From the IMG/VR virus record IMGVR_UViG_3300037010_000365, positions 17,962 through 81,961 of that record: a stretch of 64,000 bases of DNA. One strand, given 5' to 3'. Both the position numbers and the translations under genes were made by a program. The notes under the pieces are model-generated. The model ran no database searches and was not told the origin of the DNA. It saw only the letters and a list, made by a program, of their open reading frames with translations. This document shows, in pieces, positions 17,842-49,172 of the stretch. Origin of the DNA: a virus. Numbering within the stretch: position 1 is the stretch's first letter; each line of letters opens with the position of its first letter.

Positions 17842-17872
17842 AGAATAATTACACATGTAAGGAATAGATTTT

Positions 17873-18439
17873 ATGATTGAAATTACCGCGAAACCGTATG
17901 ATGTTAGATTCGCAAAGCGTAAAGCTAGAAATAAAGATGCAGCCGATTATATCAATAATTCTTTGTTGTACGAAGAAATGGTAAGATGGAAGGAATCTGG
18001 AGAAGAGAAAGTATCTGCTGAACTTGGTAGAATGTTTTTATTATTAGCAAAAAAAGTAACATCACATCGCCATTTTTCTAGATATCCAATTGAATTAAAA
18101 GAAGAAATGGTAAACGAAAGCGTTATAACCTTATTAAAAGGCGCTAGCAAGTTTAATCTTGAATTTAAAAATCCATTTGCATATTTTACACAATTCTGTT
18201 TCAACGCAAATATTGGTGTTATTAAAAAGTACTACGCTGAGAATGCTGGGACAATTCAATACTTTTTAGCAAACACACAAGAAATTGATGTCACTGATGG
18301 TCATACATTAGCAGTTATTGAGCAAGCAAAGATGTATTCAGATTCTAGAGCAAATTCTAGCAAAAAAACAAAATCAAATAAAGCAGTTAGACCAACATTA
18401 TTTGATTTTGATGAATTCGTAAAAGAACTTGTTGATTAA
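17873..18439 (+). CDS. gp55: Late-transcription sigma factor
   Basis: YINN..LY, LG.MFLLLAKK, F.RY, NPFAYFTQ.CFNA. Confidence 0.93.
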   Translation: MIEITAKPYDVRFAKRKARNKDAADYINNSLLYEEMVRWKESGEEKVSAELGRMFLLLAKKVTSHRHFSRYPIELKEEMVNESVITLLKGASKFNLEFKNPFAYFTQFCFNANIGVIKKYYAENAGTIQYFLANTQEIDVTDGHTLAVIEQAKMYSDSRANSSKKTKSNKAVRPTLFDFDEFVKELVD

Positions 18440-37674: not shown

Positions 37675-37746
37675 AATCCCGGCTTAATCCAATCAAATTA
37701 GATAATAGAATCTATATCTTTTCTTTTTTGGTTAAGCCAGAGTGCT
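37675..37746 (-). repeat. Dispersed hairpin element, copy 3 (inverted)
   Basis: Reverse complement reads GGCTTAACCAAAAAAGAAAAGATATAGATTCTATTATC...TGGATTAAGCC. Confidence 0.8.
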
Positions 37747-37908
37747 AGAAATGAATTAAAATGTTGTTTATAATATTTCAATAATGTGATATTATGATTA
37801 TTAGAAGTTAAATCTTCTACATCGCAGTGATTTTACTGCTTAACCTTGTCCTAATCTCAGCATTAACCTGCCGAGCCAATGACAAAAAACTGAAATAAGG
37901 GAGACTAT

Positions 37909-39198
37909 ATGTCTAAAATTAAAGTAGCTATTGTAGGTGTTGGTAACTGTGCCAAATCATTAGTAGAAGGAATTCAATACTATAACGAAAATCCAAATGA
38001 TACTGTCGGATTAATGTATCCTGATATTGGCGGCTATAAATCTAGCGATATCGAATTTGTTGCTGGTTTTGACGTTGATATTCGTAAAGTTAATAAACCT
38101 CTAATTGAAGCTTTGCGAGCTAGTCCAAATTGTGCTATGGATCACGTTATTGAAATTACTGATAGCGAAATGACATCTTGTGTAACAAAGGGCGCCATGG
38201 TTTATTCAGGTCCAACCATGGATGGCGTTGCTCCATACATGCTAGACTTTCCAGAAGAAGTATCTTTTCGTATCGGCGCTATTCCAGCAGAACCATTCGA
38301 TCGAGTTGTCGAATTATTGAAATACCACAAAGTCGATGTAGTTATTAATTATCTACCAGTCGGGTCTGAAGAAGCTTCTAAGTTTTATATTGACGCAGCT
38401 ATTAAAGCAAAATGCCACGTTGTTAACTGTATTCCTACATTAATTTCAACAGCTGATACTATGGAATATGAACAAAAGTTTATTGATGCTGGGTTGACTA
38501 TTGTTGGTTCTGATATGCGTTCTGCTTGGGGTGCTAGCCGATTATCTGAAGTGCTACAGGGTGCTATGCTAGATGCTGGTCTGCTAGTAACACAACATAT
38601 CCAAATGAATATGGCAGCAGGCACTACGCAAGGTCAAGAAACCATTAGAACTGGCCGTACGGCAAACACTGATTTTTTAAACATGATTAGCAAGGATCGT
38701 TTACACAGCAAACATGTGTCGAAGGAAAATGTCTTGCGTGGCCAAAATTCCGTTCGAGACGTTGACACTGCTGGCATGACATTATATGCAGGTCCTTCGT
38801 TAACGGTTTTACAAAAGCCAGGTGGCCAATACGTTGGTTCAGATAATAAAATTGCTAATTTGGATCTAGTTGCTTACGGTTTCGGTGGAGCTCGATACGA
38901 ATTAACTGCACGATTATCTGTACAAGACAGTCCTAATTCTGGCGGTGTAGTTGTATCAGCTATTCGTTTCTGTAAAGTAGCTAGTGAAATGGGTATTGTT
39001 GGATTTTTACGTGGACCTAGCGCTTATACCCAAAAGACACCGCCATTACAGCTAAGCTCATCTGATTCAAAATTTGAATGTGACGCTTTGTCTCGTCGTG
39101 TGTTAACATCGTTAACAGAACCTCAACTTAAGATTAATAACCCAGTCGCAACGGATTTGCCATATACGTTCCAATCAAGTAAAACTGATTATGAATAA
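37909..39198 (+). CDS. ino1: myo-inositol-1-phosphate synthase (Ino1 family)
   Basis: KVAIVGVGNCAKSLVEG, FVAGFDVD..KV, NYLPVGSEEA, NCIP, NTDFLNM, DSPNSGGVV, KTPP. Confidence 0.9.
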   Translation: MSKIKVAIVGVGNCAKSLVEGIQYYNENPNDTVGLMYPDIGGYKSSDIEFVAGFDVDIRKVNKPLIEALRASPNCAMDHVIEITDSEMTSCVTKGAMVYSGPTMDGVAPYMLDFPEEVSFRIGAIPAEPFDRVVELLKYHKVDVVINYLPVGSEEASKFYIDAAIKAKCHVVNCIPTLISTADTMEYEQKFIDAGLTIVGSDMRSAWGASRLSEVLQGAMLDAGLLVTQHIQMNMAAGTTQGQETIRTGRTANTDFLNMISKDRLHSKHVSKENVLRGQNSVRDVDTAGMTLYAGPSLTVLQKPGGQYVGSDNKIANLDLVAYGFGGARYELTARLSVQDSPNSGGVVVSAIRFCKVASEMGIVGFLRGPSAYTQKTPPLQLSSSDSKFECDALSRRVLTSLTEPQLKINNPVATDLPYTFQSSKTDYE

Positions 39199-39217
39199 TT
39201 GAAGTGGTTTAACAATA

Positions 39218-39607
39218 ATGAATCAAATTTATTCATACGACATTGATGGAGTTATTAATTTAGATACTGGACGAATTGGTATTCGTCCAGGGTCTGTTAA
39301 TGACGTTATTATTTCTGGTAGGTCTACTGACGAACTTACTGACACTATAAAGTTTCTTCGAGATAACGGCATTGGTAACTACGTTTATCTTAATCCTATT
39401 CCATTCGAAGAAAAGACACGTGTTTTATCAGGTATTCATAAAGGTAATACTATTTTAGCTTTGCGTGAATTAGGGTTGAATATCGTGACACATTATGAAG
39501 ATGATGTAGTTCAAATTGAGCAGATAATGAAGATTGTCCCAGATTTAATAATTATTCACGTCAATCATAATGGAATTGTAAATTATGAAAACGTTAAAAG
39601 AGGTTAA
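39218..39607 (+). CDS. Minimal HAD-family phosphatase
   Basis: YDIDGV (motif I), ISGRS (II), HK (III), HYEDD (IV). Confidence 0.8.
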   Translation: MNQIYSYDIDGVINLDTGRIGIRPGSVNDVIISGRSTDELTDTIKFLRDNGIGNYVYLNPIPFEEKTRVLSGIHKGNTILALRELGLNIVTHYEDDVVQIEQIMKIVPDLIIIHVNHNGIVNYENVKRG

Positions 39608-39610
39608 ATA

Positions 39611-40663
39611 ATGAATTACGTATATGGAATCTTAGGTTCTATACCTAAACTTAAATTCTCTCATAATTCAGCTTATGCAAAAATATGGGCAAACGTTAGT
39701 AAATCTTGTATTACTGATGATTTAGATTCTGTTACATCTTCAGACAATGTTTTGCTGTATTTTGGTGTAGGGTTTAATGGTAAATTATTAAACCTTTTTG
39801 ACGGTGCTAATTCTAAGTTGTTTAACAGACTTAATGCTTTCTTATCTTGTCAAGCTGAATTTACTAGTATTGATTTTGATATGCCAGACATTGGAGCTAT
39901 GCTAACAATTAGAATTGGTAATAATACTACTGATCCGAGATTTACTAAAGAGTTTCTTGATAAAATTAGTGATAAGTGTAAAACTGTTAAGCAAATTAAC
40001 ATGAAAGATTTTATTAATGACACTATTGTTATCGGTGATTCACATAGTCTTTCAATGACTCCGCTAAATGCACCAGTAATTTATATGACAGGCAAAACAA
40101 TGTTTGGTATTACTAAATCTGGATTATCAGAAATCGTTGATTTGAATAATATCAATAAATTAACTTTATCGTTTGGTAGTATCGATATTCGACATCATTT
40201 ATTCAGACAGACAAATCCTAATGTAGCTGCTACTAAACTGGTTACAGATTATCTGAATATGATTACTTTACTGTTAGACTCGCATCTGCAGATTAATATT
40301 GAATTATGTTCTACTGTTCCTGTTGAATTCGAAGGTAGAAAATTGCCAAAAACTGGCTATTATAAAGGTACCCCATTTGCTGGTAACAGACAACAGCGAT
40401 TAGATGTAACGTTGATGATTAATAACATGCTTAGCGAATTTGCAAATATGACAAATAGAGTTTCGTACATGTCATTTCCATTGGAATGGTATGAAATGGA
40501 TCCTAAACTGTTTGCTGATACTATCATGGAAAGACCTAAATCTGTTCATATCGGTTACCCGTTTTATAGACTAAATGATTTTGGTAAAGTAGAGCAGTTC
40601 AACGATGAAGAACCAGAGAATAATACAGAAAAACCTATGTTTTCTGGTCCTACTTTATTCTGA
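39611..40663 (+). CDS. SGNH/GDSL-like protein in the DNA-modification operon
   Basis: IVIGDSHS, FGSIDIRHH, KSVH; ends FSGPTLF. Confidence 0.55.
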   Translation: MNYVYGILGSIPKLKFSHNSAYAKIWANVSKSCITDDLDSVTSSDNVLLYFGVGFNGKLLNLFDGANSKLFNRLNAFLSCQAEFTSIDFDMPDIGAMLTIRIGNNTTDPRFTKEFLDKISDKCKTVKQINMKDFINDTIVIGDSHSLSMTPLNAPVIYMTGKTMFGITKSGLSEIVDLNNINKLTLSFGSIDIRHHLFRQTNPNVAATKLVTDYLNMITLLLDSHLQINIELCSTVPVEFEGRKLPKTGYYKGTPFAGNRQQRLDVTLMINNMLSEFANMTNRVSYMSFPLEWYEMDPKLFADTIMERPKSVHIGYPFYRLNDFGKVEQFNDEEPENNTEKPMFSGPTLF

Positions 40664-40852
40664 TACTTATTATGGAAATACCATCGAATACACCGTTGAA
40701 TTTAACCCATGTTAATACTTAATAATTTTGGATTGCTATCATCAAGCGCTCCAAAATTATTCTAAACGGTTACAAAATTCTATTAACTAAAATGAGGGGG
40801 ATATTAAATCATTAAAACACCAAATATTATTTCACATCCAGATTTTCCAATT

Positions 40853-42115
40853 ATGATGGACCATTGTTTTGTTGGCAAACCTCAAGAACCTGATTTTGAT
40901 TATACACCAGATTCTTGGTATGATTCTTCTAAAGGGTTCGATAAAAATATCAATTATTCAAAATTAAGAGTGATTACACCAAAAGTTTCTAAAATATTAT
41001 GGGAATCCGTTGACAAGGATTTTCTGCATGAAATGCGTATGTTTACACATAATGTTCAAAGAACATGGGAAATCCATTATGGTGTAAGACCAGTTGAACA
41101 TTATATTGCACCAAATCCTGCTCTTGCCCTTGACGTTGAATATTTCGGGTTTTGGGTAACCGCAGACGACCGTTTAAGATATATTGCTGAAAATATAACA
41201 ACTAATCCAGACTTACCATTAATAGACCAGATTGGCAATGGTTTAGCATCACATTTTTACGGAGCAAGAAACGTACATAAAGCTATGAATGGCATTGATG
41301 ATCCTAAAACAGCGTTAGTAAACTACAGTAAATTAGCAGAAGAACAAATTGAGTTTAAGACGTCTGGTATTATTGGGGAATACACCTTGCATATGAGATC
41401 CTTTCTTGAAGAACAGAAGAAGAAAGGTGAAAAACTCTGGGGAACTACTGAGCTACACACGTCTATCCAAACTGCTGGGCGTCGCTGGTTAAACGAGTGG
41501 TATAACGATGATAGACTACATCAAAATAAAGGTTCATCAAATAACGTTAATGAATGGATTGCTTCGTTTAAGAATTCTGGTTTGCTAGATAAAATGGTAG
41601 CTAATTCTGGATTAAAGTCAATGTGTGATATTCTTGGGTCTGAATGGGGTATCGGCGATTATTACCGGTTTCACGGTGGTTCTGATTTATCATTATGTCC
41701 TGAATTAAACGCATATATTGATGAACGATATGTGGTACCTGGTCCTGGAGCAACATGGACATTAAAAAATCTATATCCAGATTTATCAACTAAAGACGTT
41801 TCTCTTGCTGATAGAGTTATTTGGTTTAGAGAAAACCAATCATATTTGCTAGGTCTTCCTGAGATTAATCCGTTTTTTCATAAACTGGAAGTCAATGGCA
41901 TTAACATTTTTCCTGAACCGATTAATGAAATCAAAACAACTCAAGCTGAAGTATGTCATTGCCAGTTCGGAATTTATGTAGATTTGCGAGACAATCCACA
42001 TAAAATCGATAAACGAAAAGTAGCAAGAAACGATAATGCTACTTGCGCGATTGATAGCGTGCAATCACCGAATAAACGAAAAGCAGAAATTTATTCTGGA
42101 CCTACTCTATTTTAA
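40853..42115 (+). CDS. aGPT-Pplase-like (HhH-glycosylase fold) DNA base-hypermodification protein
   Basis: GIGDYY.FH..SDL, VVPGPGA..TL, EVCHCQF..Y motifs; ends YSGPTLF; start may be upstream at ATC/ATT 40808-40811 behind GAGGGG. Confidence 0.65.
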   Translation: MMDHCFVGKPQEPDFDYTPDSWYDSSKGFDKNINYSKLRVITPKVSKILWESVDKDFLHEMRMFTHNVQRTWEIHYGVRPVEHYIAPNPALALDVEYFGFWVTADDRLRYIAENITTNPDLPLIDQIGNGLASHFYGARNVHKAMNGIDDPKTALVNYSKLAEEQIEFKTSGIIGEYTLHMRSFLEEQKKKGEKLWGTTELHTSIQTAGRRWLNEWYNDDRLHQNKGSSNNVNEWIASFKNSGLLDKMVANSGLKSMCDILGSEWGIGDYYRFHGGSDLSLCPELNAYIDERYVVPGPGATWTLKNLYPDLSTKDVSLADRVIWFRENQSYLLGLPEINPFFHKLEVNGINIFPEPINEIKTTQAEVCHCQFGIYVDLRDNPHKIDKRKVARNDNATCAIDSVQSPNKRKAEIYSGPTLF

Positions 42116-42128
42116 TAAAAGGAATTAA

Positions 42129-42623
42129 ATGATAGTTATTATTGAAGGACCTGATCGGGTCGGTAAAGATTCACTATTATCTCAAGGGGTTTTTACAGAG
42201 TACGAACAGATTCATTGCGGATCACCAAAGCTAAAAACCAAAGATTATTACTATGGATATTATACTGGTTTATATCAATCATTAAATCAATTGAATACCC
42301 GTGTTGTATTAAATCGAAGTTCAATAGGTGAATATGTTTATGGACATTTATATCGCAACAACGAATATGAATTGTTAGATATAGTAGATCCTCATCAAAT
42401 TATTGCAAATCATGAAGTTAGAATAATCACATTAATCGATTCAGCTGAAACTTTATTGTCTAGAGAAGACGGTGAATCATTTGGAAAAACGTTACAAGCA
42501 AAAAAAGATGAAATTGACCGGTTTATTAAAGTCACCGAATTTTTTAATGGGTCAGTTATTAATTGCGCAGGTAAAACTTCTAATGAAGTATACGAAGAAG
42601 TTGTAGGAGTTATGTATGGATAG
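42129..42623 (+). CDS. Thymidylate-kinase-like P-loop kinase
   Basis: IIEGPDRVGKD, NRS.IGEYVYG..YR. Confidence 0.8.
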   Translation: MIVIIEGPDRVGKDSLLSQGVFTEYEQIHCGSPKLKTKDYYYGYYTGLYQSLNQLNTRVVLNRSSIGEYVYGHLYRNNEYELLDIVDPHQIIANHEVRIITLIDSAETLLSREDGESFGKTLQAKKDEIDRFIKVTEFFNGSVINCAGKTSNEVYEEVVGVMYG

Positions 42624-43308
42624 AGTAAGCGATATTAGAAATCAGTTGGTAAACCAATATAACACAGGCGATTTTGTTATTGATAAGACTGGTGCAAAAA
42701 TGGTAGAACTTATCGGCGCTACATTTATCGCTGATGAAGATTGGATTATTAGAAAACCAAATATGGAATATGTTAAGCATGAGTTAGATTGGTACGAATC
42801 ACAAAGCTTGAATGTTTATGATATACCTGGAGTTGTTCCAGAAATTTGGAAACAGATCGCAGACATGTATGGTAACATTAACTCTAATTATGGTTGGTGT
42901 ATCTATTCTGATGAAAATTCAGCTCAATTCCAGAAATGCTTAAACGAATTACTAGCTAATAAATTTAGTCGACGATCAACTATGATTTATAATAGACCGT
43001 CTATGCATGAAGACTATAAAGAAAATGGTAAAAATGATTTTATTTGCACCTACGCTAATCAGTTTTTTATTAGAGACAACAAATTAGTTTCTCATTACAT
43101 AATGCGGTCAAATGACTCGGTATTTGGGTATTGTAATGATTATCAGTGGGCTAAATATGTACAGCAACATATGCTTTCTGAATTGCTATTAGACTATCCA
43201 GGTCTTGAGTTAGGCGATATCATATGGACAGCATCAAGTCTTCATGTATATGAACGACATTTTAAATTTATTGAAGAATATAAAGGAACACAAAATGGCA
43301 GTATTTAA
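42616..43308 (+). CDS. gp42: dCMP hydroxymethylase (T4 gp42 family)
   Basis: DKTG.K..E.IGA.F.ADE, ELDWYES, INSNYGW, SRR..MIY.RPSM, DFICT, MRSND.VFG..ND (Asp specifying dCMP), SLHVY.RHF. Confidence 0.93.
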   Translation: MDRVSDIRNQLVNQYNTGDFVIDKTGAKMVELIGATFIADEDWIIRKPNMEYVKHELDWYESQSLNVYDIPGVVPEIWKQIADMYGNINSNYGWCIYSDENSAQFQKCLNELLANKFSRRSTMIYNRPSMHEDYKENGKNDFICTYANQFFIRDNKLVSHYIMRSNDSVFGYCNDYQWAKYVQQHMLSELLLDYPGLELGDIIWTASSLHVYERHFKFIEEYKGTQNGSI

Positions 43309-43831
43309 TCAATGCTCACACTTAGTAAATGAAGAATCATTAGCGCAAGTTCGTAACGCGGTGAACTTGTCTAAACATGTAGGTAATAACCCATTTCAAT
43401 TAGTGCTAGACACTCAATTGAAATTGCAAAAAGAATTAGCTGCTAAGTTACCAGAAAATGGTAACATTGATCCTGAAAATATGGCCGATTGGGCTACTTG
43501 CGGTCAGATGGTAGATTATATGCGTGAACAGAAAGATTCACTAGACGACGAGTTCCGTGAATTGCTTACATCATTCGGTGGGATGTCTAACGGTGAAAAA
43601 TCAGCTACATCAGTCTGGAAGAAGTGGAAAAAAGATAACCAGTCTAGACGTAACACTTTATTTTCTGAATTGTCAGAAGAAGATAAATTAGAAGTTTATA
43701 TGGAATTAATCGATGCTGTTCATTTCTTTGCTAATAAAATCAATGCATTAGGTTTAACAGCTGACGATGTTTGTGAGTTGTATCTCATTAAAAATGCTGA
43801 AAATTTTAATAGGTATAACGCTGGTTATTAA
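43295..43831 (+). CDS. gp56: dCTPase/dUTPase (T4 gp56 family)
   Basis: MAVFNQCSHL, MREQKD..DDEFRELLTS.G.MS.GEK.A..VWKKWK, EL.D..HF, KN.ENF.R..GY. Confidence 0.93.
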   Translation: MAVFNQCSHLVNEESLAQVRNAVNLSKHVGNNPFQLVLDTQLKLQKELAAKLPENGNIDPENMADWATCGQMVDYMREQKDSLDDEFRELLTSFGGMSNGEKSATSVWKKWKKDNQSRRNTLFSELSEEDKLEVYMELIDAVHFFANKINALGLTADDVCELYLIKNAENFNRYNAGY

Positions 43832-43915
43832 TTTTATACAAAACCGTTTAGTTTTACATCTAAACGGTTTACAAATCATTCGTGATGTAATATAATAATC
43901 AAAAAGGAGTACACC

Positions 43916-46642: not shown

Positions 46643-47692
46643 ATGAAAAATATGTTTAAATTTCCAAGCATTGAACAATTTGCTTCGGTGGTTAAAAGCG
46701 TTCGAGAACGTTCTAAGTTTGTTGGATTAGACACTGATGGGAAAGCTATTTTTGATCTAAGCAAAGTTGCACCTAAATTATCGTTTCATGGCACTGTAAA
46801 ATTACATGGAACAAATGCTTCAGTGTGCTTTAACCAAGTAGATGGATTATGGTTCCAGTCTCGTGAAAATATCATTACGCCTGAAAAAGATAATGCTGGT
46901 TTTGCGTTCTACGTAGAATCTAATAAATTTGAGTTTCTCCGCATTATTAATCAGTTTAGTGTAGATAATCAACTAGATTTATCTACGACGTCTCTATGTA
47001 TTTACGGTGAGTGGTGTGGTGGTTCGATTCAGAAAGGTGTAGCGCTGAACCAGTTACCTAAAATGTTTGTAGTTTTCGGTGTTAAGCTAATGACTTTTGA
47101 CAGTGAAGAATCAGTAGGCACATGGTTAGATCATTCAAGCATTAACGATGAGACTATTCGTTGTTATAATATTGAACAATTCCCAACTTACGATATCGAG
47201 ATTGACTTCGAGAACCCTTCATTATCACAGAATAAGTTAATTGATATGACTATCGCTGTTGAAGATGAGTGTCCAGTTGGTAAGCACTTCGGAGTTTCGG
47301 GTATCGGTGAAGGAATTGTTTTCTCCCATGTCTATGAAGATGGTACTGTGCTTCGCTTCAAATCTAAAGGTGAAAGACACGCTAGCTCTAAAGTAAAAAC
47401 ACTAAAAGTTGTGGATGACGCTAAAGAGCAGTTAAAATTAGATATTGCTGAAAAAGTAACACCGGACTGGCGAGTTGATCAAGCTATTCAAGAGGTGTTT
47501 GACACTAATAACAATGGTGTAATCGATATTAAGAAAATTGGTGATGTCATCAAGTGGGTTAACCAGGATATCATGAAAGAAGAGCTTCATGTATTTGCAG
47601 AAGCTGGGTTAGAGCCTAAAGAGGTAATGTCCAAAGTTGCACAATTTGTTAAAACACGTTTCTTTACTGTTATGAATGAGAATTTAGTATGA
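46643..47692 (+). CDS. RNA ligase, Rnl2 family
   Basis: VKLHGTN, QSR, DNAGFA, IYGEWCG, GEGIV, FKSKG. Confidence 0.85.
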   Translation: MKNMFKFPSIEQFASVVKSVRERSKFVGLDTDGKAIFDLSKVAPKLSFHGTVKLHGTNASVCFNQVDGLWFQSRENIITPEKDNAGFAFYVESNKFEFLRIINQFSVDNQLDLSTTSLCIYGEWCGGSIQKGVALNQLPKMFVVFGVKLMTFDSEESVGTWLDHSSINDETIRCYNIEQFPTYDIEIDFENPSLSQNKLIDMTIAVEDECPVGKHFGVSGIGEGIVFSHVYEDGTVLRFKSKGERHASSKVKTLKVVDDAKEQLKLDIAEKVTPDWRVDQAIQEVFDTNNNGVIDIKKIGDVIKWVNQDIMKEELHVFAEAGLEPKEVMSKVAQFVKTRFFTVMNENLV

Positions 47693-48054
47693 CATACGAT
47701 GAAAAACTAGAGATTATTAAGTCTCTGGTTTACAACTTTGAAGCAGTGTCTGGACAGTATATTGAACGGAACAACATCACTAAGCGTGGTGTAGCATTAT
47801 TATTTGATGTTGACATAAATTTAGCTCCACCGTTCGATTTTCCAGTGCATCCGTGGGATGATTTAACAGACACATACGATAACGTGATATTTGTACTCAC
47901 CGGTGTGCATAACATTATTAACTATTGGTGTGAAACATCTTTGTTTCCGCATAAACCTGAATCATTTGGGTCAATTAAATTTAAAGACACTGATTATCGA
48001 ATTAAAACAGCAGATGATGTTATGGAATACATAAAAACGCAAATTAAAGAGTGA
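47689..48054 (+). CDS. Hypothetical protein
   Basis: Coupled ORF between the two ligases. Confidence 0.6.
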   Translation: MTYDEKLEIIKSLVYNFEAVSGQYIERNNITKRGVALLFDVDINLAPPFDFPVHPWDDLTDTYDNVIFVLTGVHNIINYWCETSLFPHKPESFGSIKFKDTDYRIKTADDVMEYIKTQIKE

Positions 48055-49172
48055 TAGGTATGAATATTAATGAAATGTCCGTAGCTATGCAGCGCGACGA
48101 GATTCGGGTCAAACATGAAGAAATTAACGGTGAATCATTTAACATTATTTGTTATATGGTAGCTACACGTGATTTATGGGACATACCAGGCGCTATTGAA
48201 TGCCGAGGTATCACATTTAATGACCAGGGTAATTGTGTTTGTCGTACAATGCCAAAGTTCTTCAATCTAAACGAAAATAAATTCACTCAATTAGTTGATT
48301 TGAATTTTGACAACGCAAAATGTTATGAAAAGCTCGATGGCTCAATGGTTACTCCAGTCAAACTAAAAGATGGTTCAATTCGTTTCAAGACAAAGAAAAG
48401 CTTTTATTCAGACGTAGCTCATCAAGCTAATTGTTATTTCAGACAAAACCAGAACTATATTGACTTCTGTAATTATCTAATTGATAACAATATGACTCCA
48501 TCGTTTGAATTTCAATCACCTGACGCTAAAATTGTTGTCGATGTTGCCGAAACGGTTGCAACCTTAATTCTGGTACGACAAATCAATACGGGTGCTGATG
48601 TATCTCTTGAATCGCTCGCATCATTAACTCAACAGTATAACATTCCTGTTGTTTATGGTTCGAAGTTAAACTCAGAACATAATAGTATGCGCATTCAAGA
48701 TTATATTAATCTCAGTCAGACAATCGAAGGCATAGAAGGTTGGGTGTTTGTATTAGCATCAGGTCAACGGGTAAAACTTAAGACTAAGTGGTATCTTGAC
48801 CGTCATCGTCTAACTACGTATCATGAACGTAATATTGTAGATATGATTATTGATGAGTCTCTTGACGATATTATGCCGGTTGTATCATTGCTACCAGGTG
48901 CAACTGAAACAGTAGAAGCTATCGAGCTTAAGATTGCGCATCAGTTTAAAGAGATTGACATTGCCGTATCTGAACTGCTTGATTTAATGAAACTCGAACC
49001 GGATATCAAGAGTACATCTCTCAAATATTCTAAACATACCTACTTCTCAGTTGCCGTTAGGTTATATAATGGTCAAGAAGCTGATGTGCAGATCAAGAAA
49101 TTATGGAAAAAGTTGCACTATCATGAATGGTCAACACGACCGTTATTCTGGGGTTTTGACACAGACGCATAA
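48051..49172 (+). CDS. rnlA: RNA ligase 1 (T4 RnlA family)
   Basis: ECRGI.F, R.MPKFFNLNE, EKLDGSM, FE, EGWV, VKLKT.WY. Confidence 0.9.
   Translation: MIGMNINEMSVAMQRDEIRVKHEEINGESFNIICYMVATRDLWDIPGAIECRGITFNDQGNCVCRTMPKFFNLNENKFTQLVDLNFDNAKCYEKLDGSMVTPVKLKDGSIRFKTKKSFYSDVAHQANCYFRQNQNYIDFCNYLIDNNMTPSFEFQSPDAKIVVDVAETVATLILVRQINTGADVSLESLASLTQQYNIPVVYGSKLNSEHNSMRIQDYINLSQTIEGIEGWVFVLASGQRVKLKTKWYLDRHRLTTYHERNIVDMIIDESLDDIMPVVSLLPGATETVEAIELKIAHQFKEIDIAVSELLDLMKLEPDIKSTSLKYSKHTYFSVAVRLYNGQEADVQIKKLWKKLHYHEWSTRPLFWGFDTDA

Follow-up and report, generated by a model that had tools for sequence, protein, structure and literature searches.

We analysed 64 kb of an 81,961-base IMG/VR virus record (IMGVR_UViG_3300037010_000365, positions 17,962 to 81,961), a whole stretch that we refer to as the window, and focused on an operon at window positions 37909-43831 whose products appear to modify cytosine in the viral DNA. 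CheckV puts the completeness of the record at ~46%. The window has a GC content of ~35% and nearly all of its genes lie on the plus strand; they include several T4-type markers, namely a gp55-like late sigma factor, RNA ligases of the Rnl2 and Rnl1 types, gp42 and gp56. At the nucleotide level the virus has no near relative among cultured phages, the operon giving zero megablast matches against 50,697 phage records. The operon consists of seven consecutive plus-strand open reading frames (ORFs), with the coordinates assigned in a preliminary description of this DNA. Pfam, PDB and PHROG searches, together with motif and fold comparisons, bear out the seven gene identities proposed there, subject to qualifications given below for P350 and P420:

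37909..39198, plus strand: Ino1-type NAD-dependent cyclitol-phosphate synthase, 429 aa (PF01658, 1gr0, motifs)
39218..39607, plus strand: minimal HAD-type phosphatase, 129 aa (four HAD motifs)
39611..40663, plus strand: P350, an SGNH-like protein (AlphaFold2 model, fold search, family alignment)
40853..42115, plus strand: P420, an all-helical HMUDK_hel-family protein (Pfam, AlphaFold2 model, fold comparison)
42129..42623, plus strand: K164, a small P-loop protein (Walker A motif GPDRVGKD)
42616..43308, plus strand: gp42-type deoxycytidine monophosphate (dCMP) hydroxymethylase, 230 aa (homology to 1b5e)
43244..43831, plus strand: gp56-type dCTP/dUTP pyrophosphatase, 195 aa (homology)

In this order, the first five genes are separated by 19, 3, 189 and 13 nt, and each of the last two overlaps the gene before it.

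The last two genes indicate which base is concerned. The gp42-type protein matches T4 dCMP hydroxymethylase (1b5e, E 3e-68; segments ..NDFICT.. and ..MRSNDSVFGYCNDYQW..) and, as a thymidylate synthase (TS) homolog, retains the catalytic Cys and an Asp at each of the positions corresponding to N177, L143 and D169 of ThyA. Asp at N177, an acidic residue at L143 and Asp instead of Asn at D169 denote dCMP as the substrate and a hydroxymethyl product, not a hydroxy or methyl one (PMC13326640). Judged by this signature, the enzyme targets cytosine and yields a 5-hydroxymethyl product, in agreement with the hydroxymethylated cytosine target proposed in the preliminary description; a thymine target is ruled out by the Asp at the N177 position, and a route through 5-hydroxycytosine by the retained Asp at the D169 position. 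The same residues are found in related viruses: all 38 TS homologs lying beside the homologous gene module (described below), as well as the window copy, keep Asp at the N177 and D169 positions, and the 35 complete ones also keep, without exception, the catalytic Cys and the Asp at the L143 position. The gp56-type protein shares 42-50% identity with dCTPases/NTP pyrophosphohydrolases of 1397 phage records (1381 of them covering at least 80% of the query) and matches phrog_173 (E 6e-27), with no solved relative found by sequence.

The first two genes are predicted to supply a cyclitol. The Ino1-type protein matches PF01658 (31.4 bits, cut-off 27) and, along residues 3-386, the inositol-3-phosphate synthase Ino1 of M. 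tuberculosis (1gr0, E 1.3e-58); its match to TIGR03450 (E 2.7e-70, 237 bits) lies under the equivalog cut-off of 638 bits. It retains the motifs NxDF, SKxxSK, DNK, DSPNS and K(T/S)PP, has GSDMRS for GDDxKS and VSAIR for IDAxR, and carries a 15-residue insert. Its product is uncertain, since it is a member of the family that falls short of both the equivalog score and the GDDxKS/IDAxR motifs; most probably, it converts glucose-6-phosphate to myo-inositol-3-phosphate. Ari2 (6k96), which synthesizes a five-membered cyclitol phosphate, is the second-best solved relative, 1gr0 matching far better. Lys and Arg at the GDDxKS position swap within the phage Ino1 clade, which suggests that the function was kept. 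The HAD protein carries the four motifs of its superfamily (D8-x-D10-G11-V12, T33-G34-R35, H74-K75 and E94-D95-D96), invariant or at least 90% kept in 18 homologs, and probably dephosphorylates the cyclitol phosphate. Curated models match it weakly (PF03767 in 5 of the 18 members, best E 0.009; phrog_415, polynucleotide kinase, E 1e-4), and its profile had zero matches in the PDB.

P350 consists of an N-terminal alpha/beta domain (residues 1-135), an SGNH-fold domain (136-326) and a disordered tail. Its AlphaFold2 model is of high confidence (predicted local distance difference test, pLDDT, 91.8). The structural search gave no informative neighbor for the N-terminal domain; the SGNH domain has a Foldseek probability of 1.00 and dozens of GDSL entries at Z >10, among them the GDSL esterase 7e16 (Z 14.3, root-mean-square deviation [rmsd] 2.9, 166 residues aligned). 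The family comprises 684 members and is without a Pfam model, and its profile gave zero sequence links to solved structures. Invariant residues include G142-D-S144-H (GDSH, with the block I Ser144), D192, R194, H195, H196 and H313. The preliminary description of an SGNH-like protein is thus upheld by the fold, Ser144 and H313, but not in full, as the block III Asn and the block V Asp are missing. By these sequence features P350 is a divergent member of the SGNH/GDSL group and need not be active as an esterase or acyltransferase.

P420 matches the Pfam family HMUDK_hel (28 bits, cut-off 25), as do nearly all of its listed relatives (221 relatives), and is modeled as an all-helical protein (pLDDT 90.9). 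Foldseek found no significant match for this model, and its neighbors come from an exhaustive aligner only. They form one coherent group, consisting of the queuine-salvage enzyme QNG1 (Z 8.8, rmsd 6.0, 236 residues aligned), PaMx11 gp46 (PUGT, the 5-phosphomethyl-deoxyuridine glycinyltransferase; Z 8.7, rmsd 4.2, 220 of 287 residues aligned) and, next in rank, ~20 entries of helix-hairpin-helix (HhH) DNA glycosylases (Z 5.0-8.3); by the aligner's own caveat, Z values of ~8-9 are only moderate for a helical protein. The P420 profile had zero matches among solved structures. Invariant residues include H133, H141, H201, H273, the stretch PGPGA (295-299) and E365-V-x-x-C369-Q370. A comparable motif of PUGT is E243-T244-x-x-C247, in which the Glu contacts the base; Cys247 adds to C6, the phosphate departs and glycine joins the exocyclic methylene (PMC11472151). 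The E365-x3-C369 spacing of P420 equals that of E243-x3-C247 in PUGT, a sequence-level parallel that is also kept in the Aeromonas fusion protein described below. We consider P420 a probable base-flipping enzyme acting on 5-hydroxymethylcytosine (5-hmC, or hmC) in DNA. Its earlier assignment as aGPT-Pplase-like has a basis only in the PUGT-like fold; the Pfam family is HMUDK_hel, not ADDT/aGPT-Pplase (no match to the ADDT model PF18724), and profile comparison by hhalign was negative. Neither P420 nor its longer homologs carry a Walker A motif, and the idea that the latter are HAD or kinase fusions was ruled out on this ground and by negative BLASTP searches. Separately, a metagenome protein from ENA (P0243, 889 aa) has a P420-type HMUDK_hel domain fused to a C5-cytosine DNA methylase-like domain.

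K164 is the least conserved component of the operon. Its PHROG match to thymidylate kinase is weak and confined to residues 1-18, Pfam and PDB searches found no relative, and beyond one phage match a homolog was present in a single one of 149 related loci. The kinase-activated step envisaged in the preliminary description is not borne out, as no kinase is conserved together with P420 in these loci. K164 could possibly be a nucleotide kinase for hm-dCMP, like the thymidylate kinase (TMK)-like genes of RB69 and DLP3, or a DNA hmC kinase. We also considered that it might be a homolog of Ploopntkinase3, found in TET-type loci (see below); this was ruled out, as there is no sequence similarity.

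The C-termini of P350 and P420 suggest a link between these two unrelated proteins and replication. Both end in the same hexapeptide:

40643..40660, plus strand: last six residues of P350, SGPTLF, a candidate tail for docking on the sliding clamp
42095..42112, plus strand: last six residues of P420, the same SGPTLF as in P350

They are the only ORFs of the record to end in SGPTLF, and in both models a disordered linker precedes the tail. We compared C-terminal pentapeptides from the same locus with shuffled pairs in 56 dereplicated loci (5000 shuffles). The tails of P420 and P350 resemble each other (z 6.7, with 0 of 5000 shuffles reaching the observed value), and both resemble the tail of the DNA polymerase (z 3.4 and 2 of 5000 shuffles for P420; z 4.5 and 0 of 5000 for P350), in a permutation statistic that ignores relatedness among loci. 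No significant resemblance was observed between P420 or P350 and Ino1, HAD or FkbM (z -0.1 to 0.7), nor with gp42 (z -2.5 and 0.5). The signal is that of unrelated proteins tracking the polymerase tail clade by clade, with matching sets such as LESFMN/LEEFFG/LEAFFG, QNALF/VTSLF/STSLF and NEDW/SDDW; in the Aeromonas phage 44RR2.8t, the protein ORF233c, in which P350 and P420 are fused, ends in SLDGLFAI and the split polymerase gp43B in NLFDMFDI. In T4 and RB69, gp43, gp55 and gp33 each bind the sliding clamp, gp45, through their C-termini. On this precedent we infer that P350 and P420, and often also a C5-methylase-like protein, work on nascent DNA as clients of the clamp; Ino1, HAD, FkbM and gp42 would presumably act on soluble substrates. 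The gp55-like late sigma factor of the window (phrog_234, E 1.8e-23; 17861-18439, plus strand) has the sequence RPTLFDFDEF within its C-terminal 20 residues, whose RPTLF echoes the SGPTLF tails.

We followed the operon across the viral contigs of IMG/VR. A scan seeded with the P420 alignment yielded 239 relatives, of whose loci we examined the best 80 by tblastn: Ino1 was found in 78, HAD in 77 and P350 in 74, a few kb apart and co-oriented. A scan seeded with Ino1 yielded at least 546 viral relatives, and in 69 new loci we found HAD in 65, P420 in 50, P350 in 43 and gp42-type genes in 41, many of the remaining loci being cut at contig ends. The linkage of Ino1 to gp42, on which the initial proposal had been made to depend, is thus present in related loci. 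Altogether, Ino1, HAD, P350 and P420 occur jointly in ~130 of 149 viral contigs, usually beside a TS homolog with the dCMP hydroxymethylase signature. Since this arrangement recurs in more than 100 viral contigs, the synteny of the operon is real and well beyond chance. The HAD gene adjoins Ino1 in 141 of the 149 loci, and the pair is flanked by DNA-acting genes in ~140; it is also found in phages RP13, Moby and Cr30, in RP13 and Cr30 without a recognized modification partner nearby.

Clustering of the neighboring genes revealed that near-identical Ino1-HAD pairs (75-84% identity) lie in three mutually exclusive settings. The first is that of the window, with P350 and P420 and usually gp42; a C5-cytosine-methylase-like gene is found in 61 of these loci and an FkbM-type O-methyltransferase lies inside the module in 27. 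The former gene, when free-standing, has PC, ENV-like, QxRxR and GNxVP-like motifs and often a clamp-type tail. In the second setting (10 loci), the pair is found with a TET/JBP dioxygenase, ADDT (PF18724) and Ploopntkinase3 (PF18751); TET/JBP, ADDT, Ino1, HAD and Ploopntkinase3 are consecutive in L113:7319-12224, L129:5667-10591, L148 and L102. In the third setting, represented by 3 loci and by Stenotrophomonas phage Moby, the pair is found with QueC/7-deazaguanine genes; in one of these loci (L093:8557-12435, IMGVR_UViG_3300035180_000343) QueC follows Ino1-HAD. Directly upstream of Ino1 in this locus, on the opposite strand, lies an IS605 OrfB/TnpB (Cas12f-like) gene. No locus contains P420 together with ADDT or Ploopntkinase3, or TET together with gp42 (0 of 149 in each case). 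That the settings never overlap suggests that P350 and P420 substitute for the kinase and ADDT. The simplest reading of this pattern is that Ino1-HAD is the source of a soluble building block, P350 and P420 are the counterpart of the kinase and ADDT, and gp42 is the counterpart of methylase plus TET as the source of 5-hmC. The shared cassette also suggests that the TET and gp42 routes lead to adducts of a single kind.

Cultured relatives provide further indications on P350 and P420. In Aeromonas phages 44RR2.8t and 31, a single protein of 795 aa comprises both; hhalign recognizes its P420 half with a probability of 99.9, and its SGNH part occupies the place of the kinase domain of the 5-hydroxymethyldeoxyuridine (5-hmdU) DNA kinase. 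This fusion, together with the shared clamp-type tail, suggests that P350 is a core DNA-acting partner of P420 and not, as had been suggested, a late acyl-tailoring enzyme. Both phages have gp42 (49% identity) and are without Ino1. In 44RR2.8t (ORF234c/ORF233c, L004:6378-10358) the fusion gene adjoins the gene of a Na+/sugar symporter of the vSGLT type (2xq2, E 3e-103). This gene replaces Ino1-HAD, in keeping with the import, instead of the synthesis, of a free sugar or polyol. The symporter in the place of Ino1-HAD and the FkbM O-methyltransferases in 27 loci both point to a free alcohol as the substrate that is joined. In phage phiAS4, which carries gp42, a UDP-galactopyranose mutase, a 358-aa protein (phrog_14998) and a P350 homolog are encoded consecutively (ORF0025-0027, L005:4754-8026); hhalign of the P420 profile against ORF0026 was negative. 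This trio hints at a galactofuranose-type decoration of hmC that also employs the SGNH protein.

We therefore suggest the following pathway. By homology to T4, the gp56-type dCTPase would deplete dCTP and the gp42-type enzyme would convert dCMP to 5-hydroxymethyl-dCMP, which would then be phosphorylated, possibly by K164 together with host enzymes, so that the polymerase would put 5-hmC throughout the phage DNA. Cyclization of glucose-6-phosphate by the Ino1-type synthase would give a cyclitol phosphate, which is most likely to be myo-inositol-3-phosphate, and the HAD phosphatase would release the free cyclitol. P350 and P420, tethered to fresh DNA through their polymerase-like clamp-docking tails, would finally convert 5-hmC to 5-(cyclitol-oxymethyl)cytosine. 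As a cyclitol has no anomeric carbon and is not donatable like a sugar, it is the base side that would have to be activated, as in thymidine hypermodification. By analogy with PaMx11, P420 would flip the base, Cys369 would add to C6, the leaving group would exit from the 5-methylene and a cyclitol hydroxyl would add there. P350 would probably activate the 5-CH2OH, given the kinase-domain position that it takes relative to the 5-hmdU DNA kinase; an ester formed by its Ser-His pair as the leaving group is a guess.

In this general form, in which P350 and P420 attach a cyclitol to hmC on DNA, we consider the pathway somewhat probable. We put forward only tentatively the specific form in which the adduct is a myo-inositol ether on hmC, P350 is the activator and the enzymes are tethered to the clamp. 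Just as tentative is its extension, taken as one joint claim: every cytosine would bear a myo-inositol (or, in some phages, O-methyl-inositol) ether via the 5-methylene, made without a glycosyltransferase or P-loop kinase; the SGNH-fold activator and a stand-alone HMUDK_hel-type Cys transferase would be a new enzyme pair riding the sliding clamp; and the Ino1-HAD cassette would serve gp42-, TET- and deazaguanine-based systems in at least several hundred uncultured viruses.

Several observations weigh against this proposal. The attachment of inositol to the base is argued from analogy, and the activator role of P350 is a guess of the same kind: its consensus GSIDIRHH and SSVH lack the block III Asn (GxND) and the block V Asp (DxxH), and the phiAS4-type P350, beside a UDP-galactopyranose mutase and without Ino1, indicates that P350 is not cyclitol-specific. 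No activating kinase is conserved with P420 in the 149 loci. The structural resemblance of P420 to PUGT has only the moderate Z noted above, and hhalign of its profile against PaMx11 gp46 was negative (prob 0.1). The phage Ino1 departs from the canonical enzymes (Lys to Arg in GDDxKS, plus GSD, VSA and the insert in the subclade of the window) and might form a different cyclitol, as Ari2 does. That the tails bind a clamp would follow from the T4/RB69 precedent of gp43, gp55 and gp33, and the permutation test takes no account of relatedness. Finally, the missing half of this uncultured metagenomic record could encode glycosyltransferases or other modification genes.

Among the alternatives, the one that survives best, although we regard it as rather unlikely, keeps the cyclitol and changes its identity or its linkage, for example to a cyclitol-phosphate diester on the 5-CH2OH, with HAD acting afterwards; or it makes P350 the transferase, with P420 only flipping the base, which is also the task of the helical domain of the 5-hmdU DNA kinase. 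The altered Ino1 active-site motifs and the second rank of Ari2 are compatible with another product, but the Lys/Arg swap within the phage clade suggests a kept function and 1gr0 matches far better. The many invariant Arg and His residues of P350 would suit a phosphate, and its kinase-domain position in the Aeromonas fusion, as well as the membership of P420 in HMUDK_hel and not ADDT, would fit the reversed roles. However, P420 has its own invariant set of Cys, Glu and His, and the HAD protein has no clamp-type tail and joins Ino1 in all three kinds of cluster, which fits a soluble substrate; nor did we find in the module loci a nucleotidyltransferase that could make a donor of the CDP-inositol type.

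A weaker alternative dissociates the cyclitol from the DNA: hmC would perhaps be glycosylated by enzymes whose genes lie in the half of the genome that was not recovered, Ino1-HAD would be auxiliary (providing an osmolyte or a lipid head group, or acting on host metabolism) and P350 and P420 would have another job on hmC-DNA. It draws on the ~46% completeness of the record, on RP13 and Cr30, and on the neighborhood of P350 and UDP-galactofuranose mutase in phiAS4. Against it stand the position of Ino1-HAD between DNA-acting genes in ~140 of 149 loci, the sharing of this cassette among three DNA-modification systems and the O-methyltransferases inserted in the module. Moreover, the models for T4 alpha- and beta-glucosyltransferase (PF11440, PF09198) and for the GT1 and GT2 glycosyltransferase families (PF00534, PF00535) gave zero matches in the 81,961-base, ~46% complete record, so that the earlier statement that no glucosyltransferase is recognizable holds within the whole 82 kb, and GT1-type genes are found in only 3 of the 149 loci. 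We consider this alternative unlikely.

It is less likely still that P350 and P420 place a different nucleophile on hmC (an amino acid or a polyamine, in ADDT-like fashion), the cyclitol being added later or elsewhere. The fold-level relatives PUGT and M6 gp51 do transfer glycine (PMC11472151), and ADDT genes lie beside Ino1 in the TET-type loci; yet no amino-acid-tailoring enzymes (pyridoxal phosphate-dependent, FAD lyase, radical SAM or acetyltransferase genes) were found in the module loci, where Ino1 and HAD are the sole substrate-making genes constantly present. A thymidine (5-hmdU) hypermodification operon, which the placing of P420 by Pfam in the helical-domain family of the 5-hmdU DNA kinase might evoke, is very improbable given the TS homolog (3e-68 to T4 dCMP hydroxymethylase), the cytosine-specifying Asp in the window and in 38 of 38 module-adjacent copies, the adjacent gp56-type dCTPase and the lack of any dUMP-type enzyme in the operon.

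The proposed cyclitol pathway sits within hydroxymethylpyrimidine hypermodification and can be compared with several known systems. It resembles the 5-hmdU kinase and ADDT system (PaMx11 gp46/PUGT, 8z2m; M6 gp51) in that a TS homolog makes a hydroxymethylpyrimidine nucleotide that is incorporated and then rebuilt on DNA, and in having a helical, probably base-flipping enzyme with a Glu-x3-Cys motif, clustered substrate-making genes, and in P420 a member of the Pfam family of the kinase helical domain. It differs in that the base is cytosine, an SGNH-fold protein takes the position of a P-loop DNA kinase, of which none is conserved, P420 has no Pfam ADDT or PUGT sequence match, and the proposed nucleophile is a cyclitol hydroxyl, giving an ether, in place of an amine. 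In the 5-hmdU DNA kinase itself a P-loop domain is fused to HMUDK_hel, whereas P420 is HMUDK_hel only and K164 is encoded by a separate gene, without detectable relation to known families of DNA kinases. With the T4 hmC pathway the operon shares gp42 and gp56 orthologs, the hmC acceptor and a T4-like backbone (gp55, Rnl1, Rnl2); in place of a glucosyltransferase, absent from the 82 kb of the record, the proposed decoration is a carbocyclic polyol, which a glycosyltransferase could not transfer from an NDP-sugar for want of an anomeric carbon.

The clusters for arabinosyl-5-hydroxycytosine in RB69 and in Acinetobacter phage DLP3 are similar in composition, with a dCTPase, a TS homolog, a TMK-like kinase, a sugar-phosphate-forming enzyme and a HAD enzyme that frees the sugar (PMC13326640). 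Their TS homolog, however, is D169N and makes 5-hydroxy-dCMP, whereas that of the operon keeps the Asp; and the free sugar is there converted to UDP-arabinose and transferred by GT-B enzymes (PMC13326640), whereas the operon has P350 and P420 and neither a sugar kinase/nucleotidyltransferase nor a glycosyltransferase. The phage TET/JBP (5mYOX) clusters contain the same Ino1-HAD cassette (at least 75% identity) in loci with TET, ADDT and Ploopntkinase3. In these, hmC arises from methylation and oxidation on DNA and is activated by a P-loop kinase, in contrast to the pre-replicative gp42 route with P350 and P420 in the operon.

In the literature that we searched on inositol and phage DNA modification, mentions of inositol are incidental and no inositol-bearing DNA base is described, which agrees with the preliminary description. 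If the proposal is true, cyclitol ethers would be a new chemical class among natural DNA bases. The adduct would be isobaric with glucosyl-hmC, and surveys relying on mass only would mislabel it. Given that at least 546 viral contigs encode an Ino1 relative and 239 a P420 relative, a large proportion of the T4-like phages of aquatic habitats that are uncultured may carry the module; such a prevalence would bear on evasion of restriction and CRISPR, on virome sequencing and on 5-hmC tagging enzymes. The co-varying tails suggest that phages have a general means of bringing DNA-modifying enzymes to the replication fork. The enzymology is directly accessible in cultured Aeromonas phages (44RR2.8t, 31 and the phiAS4 group), which carry gp42 and P350, with or without P420.

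With regard to the surroundings of the operon, none of the genes for a C5-methylase, FkbM, DNA polymerase or clamp was found in the 81,961-base record, itself a fragment (~46% complete). Matches to the TATAAATA late promoter were zero between 36837 and 64000. One sigma-70-like match precedes the operon, as weak evidence of a promoter:

37746..37774, plus strand: sigma-70-like promoter match, 10/12, 135 nt 5' of the Ino1 gene

A second such site (11/12) is at 43868-43896, 3' of the last operon gene; the count of sigma-70-like sites in the region is not above that of shuffled sequences, and a terminator scan likewise gave nothing above chance. Shortly 3' of the operon lie the two RNA ligases, of Rnl2 type (phrog_548, 46643-47692, plus strand) and Rnl1 type (phrog_562, 48051-49172, plus strand). 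In related viruses, the module is flanked by the small genes DUF6378 (29 loci) and DUF1599 (12 loci), and in one viral clade (L009, L024 and others) a GroEL-type chaperonin (PF00118) and a PD-(D/E)XK nuclease recur downstream, near the module.

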